DNA of 64,000 nt from an uncultured Chloroflexia bacterium (GTDB taxonomy: Bacteria; Chloroflexota; Limnocylindria; Limnocylindrales; CSP1-4), in the NCBI GenBank assembly GCA_963841545.1, contig CAWJDE010000002.1, forward strand, positions 122,875 through 186,874. Reading direction: 5' to 3'. A program made the position numbers and the translations under genes. Below are positions 26,124 through 33,163 of the stretch, piece by piece. Positions within the stretch are counted from its first letter, which is position 1. Each line of letters opens with the position of its first letter. Under the pieces are notes generated by a model, which did not search any database, was not told the origin of the DNA, and worked only from the letters and a program-made list of their open reading frames with translations.

Positions 26124-26345
26124 TCAGGCCGCGGACCGTCCGGTACCATCCCGGCGCACGGGCGTGCCGTTGGCGATTGCCGCGGCGTGGCCGATCCGAG
26201 CGAAGGCGAACGCGATCTCGAGCACGAAGGCGAACGGGTTGCTGCGGTCCGCCGCCACCTCGCGCGCGCGTCGGGCCTGGTCTGCCTCCCGGATCCGCTC
26301 GTCCATTCGATCCTGTGCCATCAGCTGCATCTGGTAGCTGTGCAT
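26124..26345 (-). CDS. Small protein A (73 aa), paralog of 32812..33048
   Basis: MHSYQMQLMAQDRMDERIREADQARRAREV... followed by a hydrophobic FAFVLEIAFAFARIG segment. GAGGAAGGGAAGG RBS. The first 18 nt are identical to the paralog. Confidence 0.5.
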   Translation of the reverse strand: MHSYQMQLMAQDRMDERIREADQARRAREVAADRSNPFAFVLEIAFAFARIGHAAAIANGTPVRRDGTGRSAA

Positions 26346-26375
26346 CTCGACCTTCCCTTCCTCGATGGCTGGTAT

Positions 26376-26439
26376 CTGGGTACGGGTCCAGCCTCGGGCT
26401 AACGAGGCCGGTCCCGCATCACGAGAGCTCGCTATTCGG
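26376..26439 (-). promoter_or_regulatory. Conserved 64-nt block upstream of small protein A (copy A)
   Basis: Aligns with 33100..33163: 38/50 identical over the RNA-sense 5' 50 nt with no gaps. Contains four CGAG/CUCG elements. Confidence 0.5.
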
Positions 26440-26558
26440 TGGGCGACGGGCGAGTGGTTGTCGCTCCAGCGCAACGATCCCGATCAGGACGCCGCGTCAT
26501 GGGAGACCTGGGCACCGCCCGAGGTGTCGACGTCCGCCGGGCGGCGCGAGCGCAGGAC

Positions 26559-27104
26559 TCAGTCGGACGAGTCCGTCCCGTCCTGCACGATCGCGGTCAG
26601 CGTGCCGGCGACGATCGGATCGGCGAACCGGACGATGAGCACACGGTCGAAGGCGACTGCGTCGCCCGGGCACGCGGGCTGGACCAGCATCAGCTGGCGG
26701 TTCTCCGGATCCACGGTGAGGGTGCTGGCGGCGTCGCACGGACCGCCGGTCCAGGTCAGCCGCAGCGTCGACGGATCGTCGTTGGCGACGACCAGCTGGT
26801 AGGGCTCGACCGAGGCACCGTCGCCCGGCACGCCCGACTCGGCGCCGCGCACGACGCCGGCCGGGGCAACCACGTCGATCGTCGCCCGGCTCCCGGTCGC
26901 GTTGGCCAGGGCGACCCGGATCGCCGGTTCCCCGGCGGCGCCGGGTTCGGACGGAGCCACGGATGGCGAGGCGGCCGCCGGCGAGGCCGGAGCGTGGGAG
27001 GCCGTTGCCGGCGTCGGGGAAGCCGTCGAGCAGGCCGCGACCAGCATGACGAGGCCGAGGACCGCGGCGGGAAGAGCGGCGGCCCGCGCGACAGGGTGCT
27101 TCAC
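26559..27104 (-). CDS. Lipoprotein of unknown function
   Basis: GTG start 6 nt after AAGGAG. Signal peptide with lipobox VKHPVARAAALPAAVLGLVMLVAAC|S, then a Pro/Ala/Ser linker and a small beta-rich domain with two Cys. Confidence 0.7.
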   Translation of the reverse strand: MKHPVARAAALPAAVLGLVMLVAACSTASPTPATASHAPASPAAASPSVAPSEPGAAGEPAIRVALANATGSRATIDVVAPAGVVRGAESGVPGDGASVEPYQLVVANDDPSTLRLTWTGGPCDAASTLTVDPENRQLMLVQPACPGDAVAFDRVLIVRFADPIVAGTLTAIVQDGTDSSD

Positions 27105-27550
27105 GTTGAGCTCCTTATGGTTCACAGGTGGGCGCCCCCGGCACCGGCACAAGGTCCGGCGTCGGGTGGTCGCCCGGTGTCCCCGGGAGCGTGACCGGGG
27201 CCGACGCGGCGCTCATCGGAGCTGGCCCGGAAAGCGGTTCAGGGCTGGCACGAGTGGATCGGTCGGCCGTCTGCGCCTCGCGGCGTGTTACCAGCCCGGT
27301 CCGCCGATCCGGCCGCCGGCTCCAGCCTCCGCGGGCTTTCGGACCGGGGGCCGCCCTCGACGGCCGGCTCGAGGTCCGCAGCCCGGCCGGCCAGGTTCGC
27401 GTCCGCCGCGACGTCGACCCCGATGTGCGTCGATTGGGGCTAGCCCTGAGGCAGGATGCGTGGCCTCCCCCGATGCCGGCCGAGGCACGCGCGACGACCC
27501 TTGGATGCACGAAAGCGGTTCACCGACCAGCACAGACAAGGGAGCGTCCC

Positions 27551-32500: not shown

Positions 32501-32602
32501 ACGGCGAAGCGACGCGAGAAGCCGGTCGAGCTCGCTCGACCGGCCGACGAGCACGGGGCTCGAGACGCGGGCTGCCATGGCGGGGATTATGGGGGTGGTC
32601 AT
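29525..32602 (-). CDS. LAL-type regulator (AAA/STAND ATPase + TPR-like repeats + LuxR HTH), paralog of 5946..9065
   Basis: Walker A GEAGVGKT and Walker B [11 protein letters not shown]. C-terminal [45 protein letters not shown]. Confidence 0.85.
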   Translation of the reverse strand: [1025 protein letters not shown]

Positions 32603-32695
32603 CGATCGCGCCAGGGGTGATCCGCGGCCGGCGGCCGGGCATCACGGGTCGTCGCCGCCGGGATCACGGCAGGCCGGAGGGGGGTCGGCGTCGGA

Positions 32696-32812
32696 TCAGG
32701 CGCCGTCGCGCGAGGCACGATCGCCGGCGTACCGATCACGTGAATCCGCGCCGTAGGCGTTCGAGACGACGCCCAGCGTCGCCAGGAACGTCACCGCGAC
32801 CACGAGCAGCAT
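32696..32812 (-). CDS. Possible 38-aa membrane mini-protein coupled to small protein B
   Basis: MLLVVAVTFLATLGVVSNAYGADSRDRYAGDRASRDGA. Its ATG shares one base with the stop of the upstream ORF (TGATG). Too short for the ORF track; translated by hand. Confidence 0.3.
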   Translation of the reverse strand: MLLVVAVTFLATLGVVSNAYGADSRDRYAGDRASRDGA

Positions 32813-33048
32813 CAGGCCGTCCACGGCGCACCTCCGTCAGGGCATCGGAACGCGGCGACCGCGCCGGCCAGCGCACGACCGAGCCACTCGAGACCGAGCA
32901 GCTGGGTGCGCCGAGATCCGGAGACCCGCGACCCGCGCGCGGCTGCCCGGGCCGCCCGGGCCTCGCGGACCAGGTGCTCGTGGGCTGCCTCCCGGGCCCG
33001 CTCGCGGCGGTGTTCCTCGGCGATCAGTTCCATCTGGTAGCTGTGCAT
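32812..33048 (-). CDS. Small protein B (78 aa), paralog of 26124..26345
   Basis: MHSYQMELIAEEHRRERAREAAHEHLVREARAARAA... followed by an amphipathic LLGLEWLGRALAGAVAAF segment. Same first 18 nt as copy A. Confidence 0.5.
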   Translation of the reverse strand: MHSYQMELIAEEHRRERAREAAHEHLVREARAARAAARGSRVSGSRRTQLLGLEWLGRALAGAVAAFRCPDGGAPWTA

Positions 33049-33099
33049 CTCGTCCTGCCTTCTGCCGCTTGACCTGCCTTCTGGCGCCTGGCGGCTTCA

Positions 33100-33163
33100 C
33101 TGGTACGAGCTACAGCCTCGCGGTAACGAGCGGTGGCGCACATCACGAGGACTCGTTATTCGG
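33100..33163 (-). promoter_or_regulatory. Conserved 64-nt block upstream of small protein B (copy B)
   Basis: Counterpart of 26376..26439. Lies 51 nt upstream of the ATG. Confidence 0.5.

Follow-up and report, generated by a model that had tools for sequence, protein, structure and literature searches.

Two short open reading frames (sORFs A and B) lie on the minus strand of the 64-kb window, the whole stretch of 64,000 nucleotides analyzed here, and each of them follows a similar upstream block. This raises the questions of whether the small genes are real, why the block has been kept at both loci, and what it does. Our results show that this high-GC genome has two small-protein genes, so far unannotated, with an old, strongly conserved upstream control region in common, most likely a special promoter together with a short leader.

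The small genes and their downstream partners

The initial annotation placed two mini-ORFs with identical starts on the minus strand, and both are found there. The genes considered are:

26124 to 26345, minus strand: sORF A, 73 aa, MHSYQMQLMAQDRMDERIREADQARRAREVAADRSNPFAFVLEIAFAFARIGH...; an orphan copy without a downstream membrane ORF or regulator
26351 to 26361, minus strand: Shine-Dalgarno region of sORF A, GGAAGGGAAGG, read from the sequence
32812 to 33048, minus strand: sORF B, 78 aa, MHSYQMELIAEEHRRERAREAAHEHLVREARAARAA...FRCPDGGAPWTA; first gene of the conserved module
32696 to 32824, minus strand: 42-aa ORF with a single membrane helix, VDGLMLLVVAVTFLATLGVVSNAYGADSRDRY...; it begins with GTG and shares 13 nt (32812-32824) with the end of sORF B
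29525 to 32578, minus strand: LAL-type regulator (AAA_16, TPR and LuxR/GerE HTH by Pfam), with a probable leaderless start at the ATG at 32578

The start shared by the sORFs is ATGCACAGCTACCAGATG, which is found twice in the window while 0.00 occurrences are expected. The mini-ORFs look like genuine genes because they have Shine-Dalgarno sites, differ from their orthologues mainly at third codon positions, conserve an N-terminal motif, and have relatives on metagenome contigs. These coding signatures are observed directly. A purine-rich Shine-Dalgarno site is present in 13 of 13 leaders of the family. Compared with the orthologues in the related locus L001, differences at the three codon positions number 7, 7 and 18 for sORF A (third-position 18/32) and 8, 7 and 19 for sORF B (third-position 19/34), and sORF A has a GC content of 0.72, 0.53 and 0.85 at the three codon positions. 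Despite synonymous variation, e.g., TAC/TAT, the N-terminal protein motif is kept. Orthologues of sORF A are P0002 and P0003, that of sORF B is P0005, and P0009 (L005) carries the same B-type C-terminal half as sORF B. The two-helix layout proposed earlier agrees with an AlphaFold model of copy A, in which helices span residues 3-33 and 37-58, although this model is of moderate confidence only (pLDDT 67.5).

Neither the sORFs nor the 42-aa ORF reached the cut-off of any family in Pfam-A, NCBIfam or PADLOC, and the lone NCBIfam match of sORF B is insignificant (E 0.24). As the module has no match in Pfam, NCBIfam or Rfam, it is uncharacterised and lineage-restricted.

The 42-aa ORF has its GGAGG Shine-Dalgarno site inside sORF B, and this site and the overlap imply that the two ORFs are probably translationally coupled. 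Its motif G-x-(D/E)-(S/T)-R-D-G-(Y/F) recurs in L001, L003, L005, L010, L015, L017 and L018. The regulator contains the domains of the LAL family, with a P-loop NTPase at the N terminus (AAA_16, E 1.6e-25), TPR repeats in the centre (TPR_12, E 2e-8) and an HTH at the C terminus (GerE, E 1.9e-16), and TPR_MalT was detected below its family cut-off (E 3.7e-5). CATAAT (32586-32591) and 7 nt precede its ATG, and the arrangement (C/G/T)AT(A/G)AT, 7 nt and ATG is conserved in 8 LAL orthologues. Also encoded in the window are a second LAL protein and a response regulator that has a LuxR domain.

Architecture and history of the upstream block

The gapless alignment reported for the upstream blocks is reproduced as repeat family D1 (51 nt, 76% identity, 26389-26439 vs 33113-33163). 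The 20 specified bases of CCGAATANCGAGNNCTCGTGATG occur exactly twice, with 0.00 expected, and CTCGTTANCNCGAGGCTG matches exactly at the two blocks only. Approximately 13 distinct copies were recovered, each upstream of a homologous small ORF. About 11 of these lie on further distinct metagenome contigs, with the block directly upstream of the small ORF; the proposed shared cis-element is thus under selection, and the objection that no other genome might carry the block next to such an ORF falls away. The synteny is equally direct: in related uncultured bacteria, the block precedes the small gene, and in most copies the overlapping gene for the 42-residue membrane peptide and the large LuxR-type (AAA_16, TPR, LuxR) regulator follow. 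A profile of the core, run over the window and the fetched loci, added only L011 and L006, two low-scoring matches selected by pattern. Among sORF relatives unlinked to a LAL gene, the block is absent in the arsenic-type loci L007 and L009 and badly decayed in L013.

The first description of the locus did not include the -35-like element, the palindrome, the conserved 6-codon mini-ORF in the block or the downstream partners. The elements of the two copies and their leaders are:

26455 to 26462, minus strand: -35-like element of copy A, GACAACCA; AAC 18 nt upstream of CGAATA
26433 to 26438, minus strand: -10-like element of copy A, CGAATA, opening the invariant core CGAATA(A/G)CGAG
26418 to 26435, minus strand: imperfect palindrome of copy A, ATAGCGAG-CT-CTCGTGAT, overlapping the -10-like element and the mini-ORF start
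26399 to 26419, minus strand: 6-codon mini-ORF of copy A, ATG CGG GAC CGG CCT CGT TAG (MRDRPR*), including the conserved CTCGTTAG
26384 to 26415, minus strand: predicted 13-bp hairpin, in A-type copies only, GGGACCGGCCTCG-TTAGCC-CGAGGCTGGACCC
33181 to 33186, minus strand: -35-like element of copy B, GAAACA; AAC 19 nt upstream of CGAATA
33157 to 33162, minus strand: -10-like element of copy B, CGAATA
33142 to 33159, minus strand: imperfect palindrome of copy B, ATAACGAG-TC-CTCGTGAT
33024 to 33143, minus strand: mini-ORF equivalent of copy B; with TAG changed to TAC at 33123-33125, the frame runs on for 39 codons before it stops within sORF B, out of frame with it
33052 to 33083, minus strand: local tandem duplication in the leader of B, CAGAAGGCAGGTC...CAGAAGGCAGGAC, doubling the Shine-Dalgarno-like stretch

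The conserved element reaches about 25 nt further upstream than the block as first described, to the AAC motif. From 5' to 3', the block consists of the -35-like (G/A)AAC(C/A)A, an unconstrained spacer of 18-19 nt, the -10-like CGAATA running into the invariant CGAG, the 18-bp imperfect palindrome ATAACGAG-nn-CTCGTGAT, ten bases that are unconstrained but invariant in length, and finally (C)TCGTTAG. Mean pairwise identity is 0.84 in the CGAATA..GTGATG core (-17 to +5) and 0.89 in CTCGTTAG, and falls to 0.41-0.51 across the -35 zone, the spacers and the leader further downstream. The observed pattern is therefore one of primary sequence conserved at fixed spacing, with freely varying spacers between the motifs. 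The tandem duplication in the leader of B appears in alignment A3 as a 19-nt insertion relative to the B-type copy of L001 (B').

The history of the two copies bears on whether the block has any function of its own. The earlier statement that the flanking DNA does not align holds only roughly, as the Shine-Dalgarno and start region aligns as well (D7, 46 nt, 85%) and an upstream DUF2807 gene has left a faint co-linear trace of its 3' end (CCAGGTCGACC...) about 85 nt upstream of both copies, where between 6 and 130 of 500 shuffles, according to the pair, scored as high in local alignment. This trace implies that a larger segment was once duplicated, and the similarity might in principle be a functionless residue of that event. 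However, the flanks have decayed to near background and the paralogous proteins are only about 40% identical, yet the block is 76% identical and its core almost invariant; a recent local duplication that includes the flanks does not fit these values. The duplication is thus old and under purifying selection, as judged from the sequences. Both copies are also present in the relative L001 and hence pre-date the split from that organism, and the same core is kept in lineages where the sORF proteins are only 33-49% identical. A residue without function is already contradicted by these comparative data, and we regard it as extremely unlikely.

Promoter, operator, mini-ORF or RNA structure

Our preferred reading, to which we assign a probability of roughly 0.55, is that each block would combine a dedicated promoter/operator with the beginning of the 5' leader of a genuine small-protein gene, and that it would co-regulate both small genes. 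What we infer from sequence is which kind of promoter is present, where transcription starts, which sigma factor or regulator acts and whether the mini-ORF has a role. The initial annotation had offered a promoter/operator or a structured leader, and the former option fits, since the motifs stand at fixed spacing with variable sequence between them. In the anchored alignment, 12 of 13 copies carry AAC, or a variant with one base changed, at a distance of 18 or 19 nt upstream of CGAATA. The element stands in a background of 72% G+C, the sequence flanking it is only 41-43% identical, and the identity of the spacer to CGAATA is 0.43. AAC and CG(T/A) motifs separated by a spacer conserved in length and not in sequence are typical of promoters of the ECF sigma type, and the AAC-N18/19-CGAATA pair resembles such a promoter in sequence, with a spacing 1-2 nt above the classical ECF consensus. 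The housekeeping-type -10 boxes of the same genome differ: CATAAT stands 7 nt ahead of the ATG of the LAL gene, and TAAGAT lies before the second one.

Several observations count against a promoter, or against a promoter only. A spacing of 18-19 nt is at the long end for ECF promoters, and in L012 and L013 the AAC element is replaced by TGAAG-N18-TAnnGA. The more than 20 contiguous conserved bases exceed what a plain promoter needs. No ECF sigma gene was matched by phmmer in the six-frame ORFs of the 64-kb window, in a crude search with E. coli RpoE as an approximate query, and no sigma gene is called in L001 or L015. ECF sigma genes are often autoregulated and close to their sites, usually together with an anti-sigma gene, but the cognate sigma gene could lie elsewhere in the genome. 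Candidates for the trans-acting factor are an alternative sigma factor, the LAL regulator and ribosomes translating the mini-ORF.

The LAL regulator enters because the palindrome ATAACGAG-nn-CTCGTGAT and a third half-site, CTCGTTAG, could form its operator, in which case it would regulate its own module and have sORF A as a second target. An inverted repeat or box array beside a co-occurring regulator gene is what a LuxR/LAL operator would look like, and the block accompanies a LAL gene at nine loci (window copy B, L001, L003, L010, L012, L015/L016, L017, L018 and L019), while the sORF relatives unlinked to a LAL gene lack the block or have it in decayed form, as described above. Half-site symmetry, scored by eye from the anchored alignments, extends over 5-7 of 8 positions in 12 of 13 copies. 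L019 is the exception: it retains the LAL gene and ATG...TAG but has lost both CTCG arms and has only 4 of 8 symmetric positions, which weakens the palindrome-operator component and favours the mini-ORF. Moreover, a conserved, probably leaderless promoter of its own precedes the LAL gene, which is therefore not simply part of the sORF operon, and the second LAL gene or the response regulator with the LuxR domain could be the binder instead. We consider a LAL operator possible, but hold it only tentatively. Much the same standing is given to a translated 6-codon uORF (ATG-N12-(C/T/A)GT-TAG) as the functional core, on which initiating, pausing or terminating ribosomes would set the output of the sORF and the coupled membrane peptide, CGAATA being merely its promoter a few bases upstream; we judge it a candidate, albeit a less probable one than the promoter/operator. 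An in-frame start and stop are conserved across the homologues, with the ATG invariant in 13 of 13 distinct copies and the 6-codon form ATG-N15-TAG kept in 11. L017, L018 and L019 have altered CTCG parts (to CCTG, CCAG) and retain ...GTTAG and the ATG. The last sense codons are nearly always CCT or GCT and then CGT, which are probably rare codons in a 72% G+C genome, and together with the stop TAG they would fit a site of ribosome pausing. Mycobacteria are known to use short regulatory uORFs, some of them leaderless. The mini-ORF region is also predicted to pair with the sORF Shine-Dalgarno site in L005, L010, L012 and L019, and masking this region lowers the pairing; however, such pairing is absent in the other 9 of 13 leaders. 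The ATG lacks a recognisable Shine-Dalgarno site, having only GAG 8 nt upstream, and the -10-like box 10-13 nt before the GTG/ATG is near, but not at, leaderless geometry. No conserved peptide or codon bias was found among the mini-ORFs (e.g., MRDRPR, MCHGAC, MCTPTC, MPSPAS), and their last two codons are conserved at the nucleotide level only (GTTAG), as in a binding site. TAC replaces TAG in window copy B and in L003, while the close relative L001 B' retains the 6-codon form MRATAR*. The spacer within the mini-ORF varies in sequence but is strictly invariant in length, with no 3-nt indel, and DNA geometry fits this at least as well.

A structured RNA leader, i.e., a riboswitch or protein-binding RNA controlling the sORF in cis, was the other option of the initial annotation and is not supported. 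The 13-bp hairpin of the A-type copies surrounds CTCGTTAG, the four CGAG/CTCG tetramers could in principle pair alternatively, and two copies reach z-scores of -1.8 and -2.1, within a range of -0.5 to -2.1 for single-sequence folds. However, a conserved RNA fold is directly seen to be missing: RNAalifold on 12 leaders gave a consensus of -4.24 kcal/mol with a covariation term of -0.04 and a compensatory change in one pair, and the long hairpin is absent from the B-type copies, L003, L017, L018 and L019. As noted earlier, no named riboswitch or leader is matched, and Rfam (4227 families) has no match in the whole window at gathering thresholds and, at E up to 10, only two irrelevant sub-threshold matches outside the blocks. 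With a transcription start immediately behind CGAATA, the RNA would even lack half of the first palindrome. A structured leader is thus very unlikely, and we find it marginally harder still to read sORF B and the 42-aa ORF as a toxin module of the mok/hok type, with translation of the upstream ORF licensing a small membrane toxin and the block as its tightly controlled promoter. The single hydrophobic helix, the 13-nt overlap and the Shine-Dalgarno site inside sORF B agree with this arrangement. Nevertheless, the sORF is conserved as a protein itself, survives as the orphan copy A, and occurs in L012 and L019 without the membrane ORF. No antisense RNA or fold-back element was identified, PADLOC gave no match, and the constant partner is a transcription regulator and not an antitoxin.

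Returning to the promoter/operator reading, a non-housekeeping sigma factor would fire both promoters and would thereby activate sORF A jointly with the unit of sORF B and membrane peptide. A second layer of control might come from the palindrome/half-site array or from the 6-codon mini-ORF within it, and the LAL regulator encoded just downstream of copy B would be an obvious candidate DNA binder. Going further, the cassette might represent a previously undescribed micro-protein signalling module of uncultured bacteria, in which the two-helix protein of about 75 aa and the translationally coupled 42-aa membrane peptide act as sensor, tether or anti-activator of the STAND-type LAL transcription factor, their synthesis being gated by the dedicated promoter and the 6-codon upstream ORF. 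In arsenic-type loci, related small proteins with a terminal Cys-Cys-Pro would have come under the control of ArsR, and a stress function based on thiols might extend across the superfamily. This larger picture is speculative, and we consider it rather unlikely.

Comparison with known systems

The pair of sORF B and the 42-aa ORF is like mok/hok in that a tiny hydrophobic ORF is overlapped by the ORF before it and is probably translationally coupled to it. Unlike mok, sORF B belongs to a conserved protein family itself, and the module is tied to a transcription regulator with no antisense RNA evident. The mini-ORF is like the uORFs and leader peptides of Actinobacteria in its very small size, its conserved start and stop codons and its place in the 5' region of a putatively regulated gene. 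Leaderless and short-leader translation is common in that group, and mycobacteria have cysteine-rich leaderless uORF attenuators as well as a uORF in the whiB7 leader. However, the predicted peptide of this putative ORF is neither conserved nor enriched in one amino acid, 2 of 13 copies have lost the stop, and the ORF is not followed by a terminator or a conserved alternative pairing.

LuxR-family proteins bind palindromes, also in their own promoters, and offer a parallel to the palindrome of the block. The Streptomyces coelicolor LAL protein SCO6993 binds palindromes in its target promoters and in its own promoter, and MalT uses arrays of short boxes (PMC9628970). The module is similar in having a palindrome and extra half-sites beside the gene of a large ATP-binding LuxR-family regulator, and by analogy its autoregulation by the LAL regulator is plausible. 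The palindrome has no sequence similarity to any published LAL site, and, unlike in these systems, the putative regulated gene is a small ORF upstream of a regulator with its own leaderless promoter.

For ECF sigma factors, known promoters include those of Bacillus subtilis sigma-X (tGtAAC-N17-CGaC) and sigma-W (TGAAAC-N16-CGTA) and of mycobacterial SigE/SigH (GGAAC-N17-(C/G)GTT), and the -10 element of SigK is probably CCGAAT. The block departs from ECF promoters in its spacing (18-19 nt vs 16-17), in conserved sequence that runs about 35 nt past the -10 element, and in a -10-like element, CGAATA, for which no match to a published consensus was found; nor did the crude phmmer search of the 64-kb window reveal a cognate sigma/anti-sigma pair nearby. 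Nevertheless, it shares with ECF promoters the AAC at -35, the CG(A/T) opening the -10 element and the spacer fixed in length but not in sequence. As in ECF systems, the putative target genes encode small envelope-associated proteins, and genes for an ABC transporter, a HisKA_3 kinase and DUF2807 proteins lie near the block.

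Small genes A and B and their upstream blocks

Two minus-strand small open reading frames (sORFs) had been proposed in the initial annotation, and both are present, of 73 and 78 aa, each preceded by a non-coding block. The features of the window that matter here are the following.

26124-26345, minus strand: sORF A, 73 aa
26376-26439, 5' of sORF A: block A
26489-26540 (-): DUF2807 remnant 5' of copy A, of which the final ~17 codons survive (DVDTSGGAQVSHDAAS*)
29525-32578, minus strand: LAL gene, encoding a large ATP-binding LuxR-family regulator (AAA_16, TPR, LuxR/GerE HTH)
32812-33048, minus strand: sORF B, 78 aa
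33100-33163, 5' of sORF B: block B

The first 18 nt of the two sORFs (ATGCACAGCTACCAGATG) are identical, as had been noted; the window holds this string at these two places only, whereas shuffled sequence gives an expectation of 0.00. Both have a purine-rich Shine-Dalgarno sequence 6-12 nt 5' of the ATG, and this start region forms a further 46-nt match between A and B at 85% identity (repeat family D7). G+C per codon position is 0.72/0.53/0.85 in sORF A and 0.81/0.62/0.82 in sORF B, in a window of 72.5% G+C. Compared with the orthologues in L001, one of the numbered loci fetched for comparison (mostly metagenome contigs), the differences by codon position are 7/7/18 for sORF A and 8/7/19 for sORF B, a pattern similar to that of the LAL gene against its L001 counterpart (55/45/181). 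Such a distribution marks both sORFs as translated and subject to purifying selection. AlphaFold models sORF A, with moderate confidence (pLDDT 67.5), as two helices that span residues 3-33 and 37-58. Pfam, NCBIfam and PADLOC gave no family for either sORF, and on these negative results anti-phage defence or a known small-protein family was rejected. In the leader of copy B (33052-33083, minus strand), a 19-nt local tandem duplication (CAGAAGGCAGGTC ... CAGAAGGCAGGAC) doubles a Shine-Dalgarno-like stretch that is single in the L001 orthologue.

Blocks A and B align without gaps over 51 nt at 76% identity (26389-26439 and 33113-33163; repeat family D1), bearing out the gapless upstream alignment described earlier. 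Within the window, CCGAATANCGAGNNCTCGTGATG occurs exactly twice against 0.00 expected, and exact matches to CTCGTTANCNCGAGGCTG are limited to the two block sites. A DNA-pattern scan of metagenome contigs, together with look-ups of encoding contigs, found block and sORF together in L001 (both paralogues), L002, L003/L004, L005, L010, L012, L015/L016, L017, L018 and L019. With the two window copies these make 13 distinct good copies, which were aligned at an invariant TGATG and are all recovered by a core profile HMM at E <= 1e-11; in L013/L014 the block is strongly decayed.

The block invariably lies 75-95 nt 5' of the sORF. Its -35-like element, (G/A)AAC(C/A)A, places AAC 18 nt 5' of CGAATA (19 nt in copy B and L003); AAC is GAC in L017, AAT in L003 and AAA in L019, and L012 is without the element. 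The core, CGAATA(A/G/C)CGAG-nn-CTCGTGATG, has a mean pairwise identity of 0.84 across the 13 copies, and is followed by a 10-nt spacer of identity 0.47 and constant length in every copy, and by a second conserved element, (C)TCGTTAG (identity 0.89). The surrounding zones reach 0.41-0.51, and CGAGGCTG and CGTACC, spaced 14-17 nt, are restricted to close relatives. Within the core lies an 18-bp imperfect palindrome, ATAACGAG-nn-CTCGTGAT, whose arms are symmetric at 5-7 of 8 positions in 12/13 copies, and CTCGTTAG is a third copy of its half-site. Finally, a 6-codon mini-ORF opens at the ATG of GTGATG and closes at the TAG of CTCGTTAG in 11/13 copies (MRDRPR, MRARPR, MQARPR, MRATAR, MRTGPR, MRVHPR, MRAGAR, MCDRAR, MCTPTC, MCHGAC and MPSPAS). 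The TAG is replaced by TAC in window copy B and L003, and in copy B the frame stays open for 39 codons, ending out of frame within the sORF.

Proposed promoter/operator reading of the block

Motifs at fixed distances, free spacers and a constant place before the same gene are hallmarks of a promoter/operator. The block is most likely such a region, a mechanism that we infer from its sequence. The initial annotation was right to see a shared cis-element; of its two options, the promoter/operator agrees with the conserved motifs and fixed distances, and the structured RNA leader found no support in Rfam, folding or covariation. Apart from a strong 13-bp hairpin around CTCGTTAG in A-type copies only, single-sequence folds of the leaders were unremarkable (z-scores -0.5 to -2.1), RNAalifold on 12 leaders gave -4.24 kcal/mol with essentially zero covariation, and the block had no Rfam match at gathering or permissive thresholds. 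Together, these results make a riboswitch or structured leader unlikely. Readings of the block as coding sequence were also rejected: no conserved start or peptide supports either a longer ORF that would stop at the TGA of TGATG or an N-terminal extension of the sORF from an upstream ATG, and for the latter the frame offset varies (0, 1 or 2).

Compared with the consensus sequences of sigma-X, sigma-W and SigE/SigH, the AAC-N18-CGA geometry appears to match ECF-type sigma promoters best. An alternative sigma factor would accordingly use the 5' third of the block, with transcription beginning in or just 3' of CGAG. A sigma-70 consensus scan of 25900-33500 found no housekeeping promoter, and the block box is unlike the CATAAT/TAAGAT of leaderless LAL genes. 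Sigma-28/WhiG-type promoters have the form TAAA-N15-GCCGATAA, and the CCGAATAA box of the block is similar; however, it stands 17-18 nt, not 15, from the A-rich -35, and this reading was rejected. The second half of the block resembles a SigB/SigF-type promoter (GTTA-N15-CGTAC), which we regard as a minor possibility, as the '-10' is kept in close relatives only and the spacing varies from 14 to 17 nt. A SigK-type reading of CCGAAT was not confirmed in the literature searched. On the bottom strand of the block (26399-26431 and 33123-33155), TAAC-N18-CGAG repeats the geometry of the top-strand AAC-N18-CGAATA, except in L019 where it is broken; the block could conceivably act as a divergent promoter or be a recognition site with symmetry.

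Bases conserved beyond the proposed promoter third need a second explanation, either a binding array or the mini-ORF. The palindrome and its half-site may form a protein-binding array, for which the neighbouring LAL regulator suggests itself as the candidate binder; LuxR-family and LAL proteins are known to bind palindromes, among them sites in their own promoters (PMC9628970). Yet L019 is without both CTCG arms and still has the LAL gene. What L019 has retained is GAATAGCGAG, the ATG, the spacing of 10 nt and GTTAG/TAG, which speaks for the mini-ORF, or for a recognition motif of the form TGATG...GTTAG, rather than for the palindrome. While the mini-ORF may explain the remaining conserved bases, several features speak against a classical leader peptide: the peptide sequence varies, a clear Shine-Dalgarno is absent, conservation of the final codons (CCT/GCT, CGT) is at the nucleotide level, and two copies have lost the stop. 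Pairing of the mini-ORF region with the sORF Shine-Dalgarno is predicted in 4/13 leaders only, which also led us to reject anti-Shine-Dalgarno attenuation.

Distribution, gene neighbourhood and duplication

Relatives of the small proteins are few. Word-indexed protein searches returned a handful of close homologues, from metagenomes only; scanning 1.8 billion representatives in full with HMMER gave 13 proteins at E <= 0.001, a profile search gave 42, and none of the 185,579 reference species genomes scanned with a protein pattern yielded a confirmed relative. Block copies likewise come from metagenome contigs only; at the stringency applied, the 185,579 reference genomes contained none. The relaxed pattern AATA-N7-CTCGTGATG-N10-CTCGTTA had a sole reference-genome match, at 2426-2462 of L011 (Nocardia araoensis, NZ_BAFR01000085.1), by estimate about the number that chance would give. 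This site scores 21.5 bits with the core profile and lies 18 nt 5' of an ATG, without sORF or AAC; from its first residues (MTNTEIHPFRIDIPQADLDELR...), the gene 3' of it looks epoxide-hydrolase-like. Pattern and profile searches for a wider regulon found no further block copies in the window or in any locus, barring the pattern-selected sites in L011 and L006, which are probably due to chance.

A 42-aa ORF follows the sORF in window copy B, L001 B', L003, L010, L015/L016, L017 and L018, and also in L005, where the short contig then ends. Its start overlaps the sORF end, with its GGAGG Shine-Dalgarno inside the sORF, and its product has one hydrophobic helix and, after it, the motif G-x-(D/E)-(S/T)-R-D-G-(Y/F). 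The LAL gene (AAA_16, TPR, GerE/LuxR HTH) comes next 3', or directly 3' of the sORF in L012 and L019. LAL genes in the window (at 32576-32591, minus strand), L003, L010, L012, L015, L017, L018 and L019 carry (C/G/T)AT(A/G)AT, 7 nt and ATG-GC.-..-CGC-GT.-TC.-AGC-CC, which reads as a conserved -10 placed for a leaderless mRNA, a textbook arrangement. This box and its spacing point to the ATG at 32578 as the probable true start of the window gene, in place of the longest-ORF start at 32602, which is probably wrong. A second LAL-type regulator (AAA_16 and GerE) at 5859-9065 (+), with its start region at about 5925-5950, has a TAAGAT box 8 nt 5' of a probable ATG near 5947, and neither sORF cassette nor block upstream. 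At a distance of 2.5-5.7 kb from copy B there are further candidate regulators: a response regulator of the LuxR type (35671-36606, +), a single-domain receiver (36603-37028, -) and a GGDEF and HD-GYP-like protein (37113-38708, -).

The module is surrounded by ABC transporter (MacB/FtsX, ABC2), HisKA_3 kinase and DUF2807 genes, a neighbourhood typical of cell-envelope stress systems. The L015 cassette lies 3' of ABC_tran, ABC2_membrane and DUF2807 genes, and the A-type copy of L002 3' of ABC2_membrane and DUF2807 genes. The DUF2807 gene, a remnant in the window, is intact in L002 (827-1510) and L015 and partial in L001 (6439-6825); the 197-aa lipoprotein-like ORF at 26559-27152 is not a relative of that gene and falls in no Pfam family. 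As B-type copies still show faint, co-linear remains of this DUF2807 3' end, the A/B pair stems from an old segmental duplication. The 42-aa ORF and the regulator are gone from window copy A, and its 3' tail is still a recognisable degenerate counterpart of the B tail. In L001 both copies flank the LAL gene, so the duplication is older than the split from that organism. Since the sORFs linked to LAL genes in other lineages resemble copy A more closely (47-49% identity vs 33% for copy B), A kept the ancestral protein and B the ancestral partners.

A looser superfamily (MHPYL...LREADQHRLV..., with a VCCPA end) occurs without the block in ArsR/low-molecular-weight phosphatase/MIP/glyoxalase loci. 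The members with the form MHPYL(S/T)GLMAEAHR.DLLREADQHRLV...PQPVCCPA, in ArsR/LMWPc (ArsC-like)/MIP/glyoxalase loci, are the following.

L007 2716-2952: small protein, encoded 3' of a promoter region in which inverted repeats of CATAGAC/GTCTATG type recur
L009 5001-5231: small protein
L009 6473-6703: small protein

The C-terminal Cys-Cys-Pro of this arsenic-type family suggests a thiol or metalloid-related role. Given that the superfamily occurs in ArsR-type loci without the block and shares a C-terminal Cys-Pro with the LAL-linked proteins, the small protein appears to be an effector captured by different regulators. The block is the control region of the LAL-linked branch specifically.

Significance and relation to known systems

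Proteins of <80 aa and their control regions are systematically overlooked by annotation, and to our knowledge the signals and partners of LAL regulators are mostly unknown. Here, two small proteins, a 42-aa membrane ORF, a 6-codon mini-ORF and a LAL regulator make up one conserved unit. The duplicated 45-nt conserved core, preserved by selection, offers a handle on a trans-acting factor, as AAC, CGAATA, both arms of the palindrome, the ATG and the TAG are defined elements that can be mutated, and can also be used for testing micro-protein modulation of LAL regulators. The narrow distribution limits the value of the finding. Collectively, the element and the protein families are undescribed, having no Rfam, Pfam or NCBIfam entry, and in kind they are an ordinary lineage-specific control region with small-protein genes of narrow distribution.
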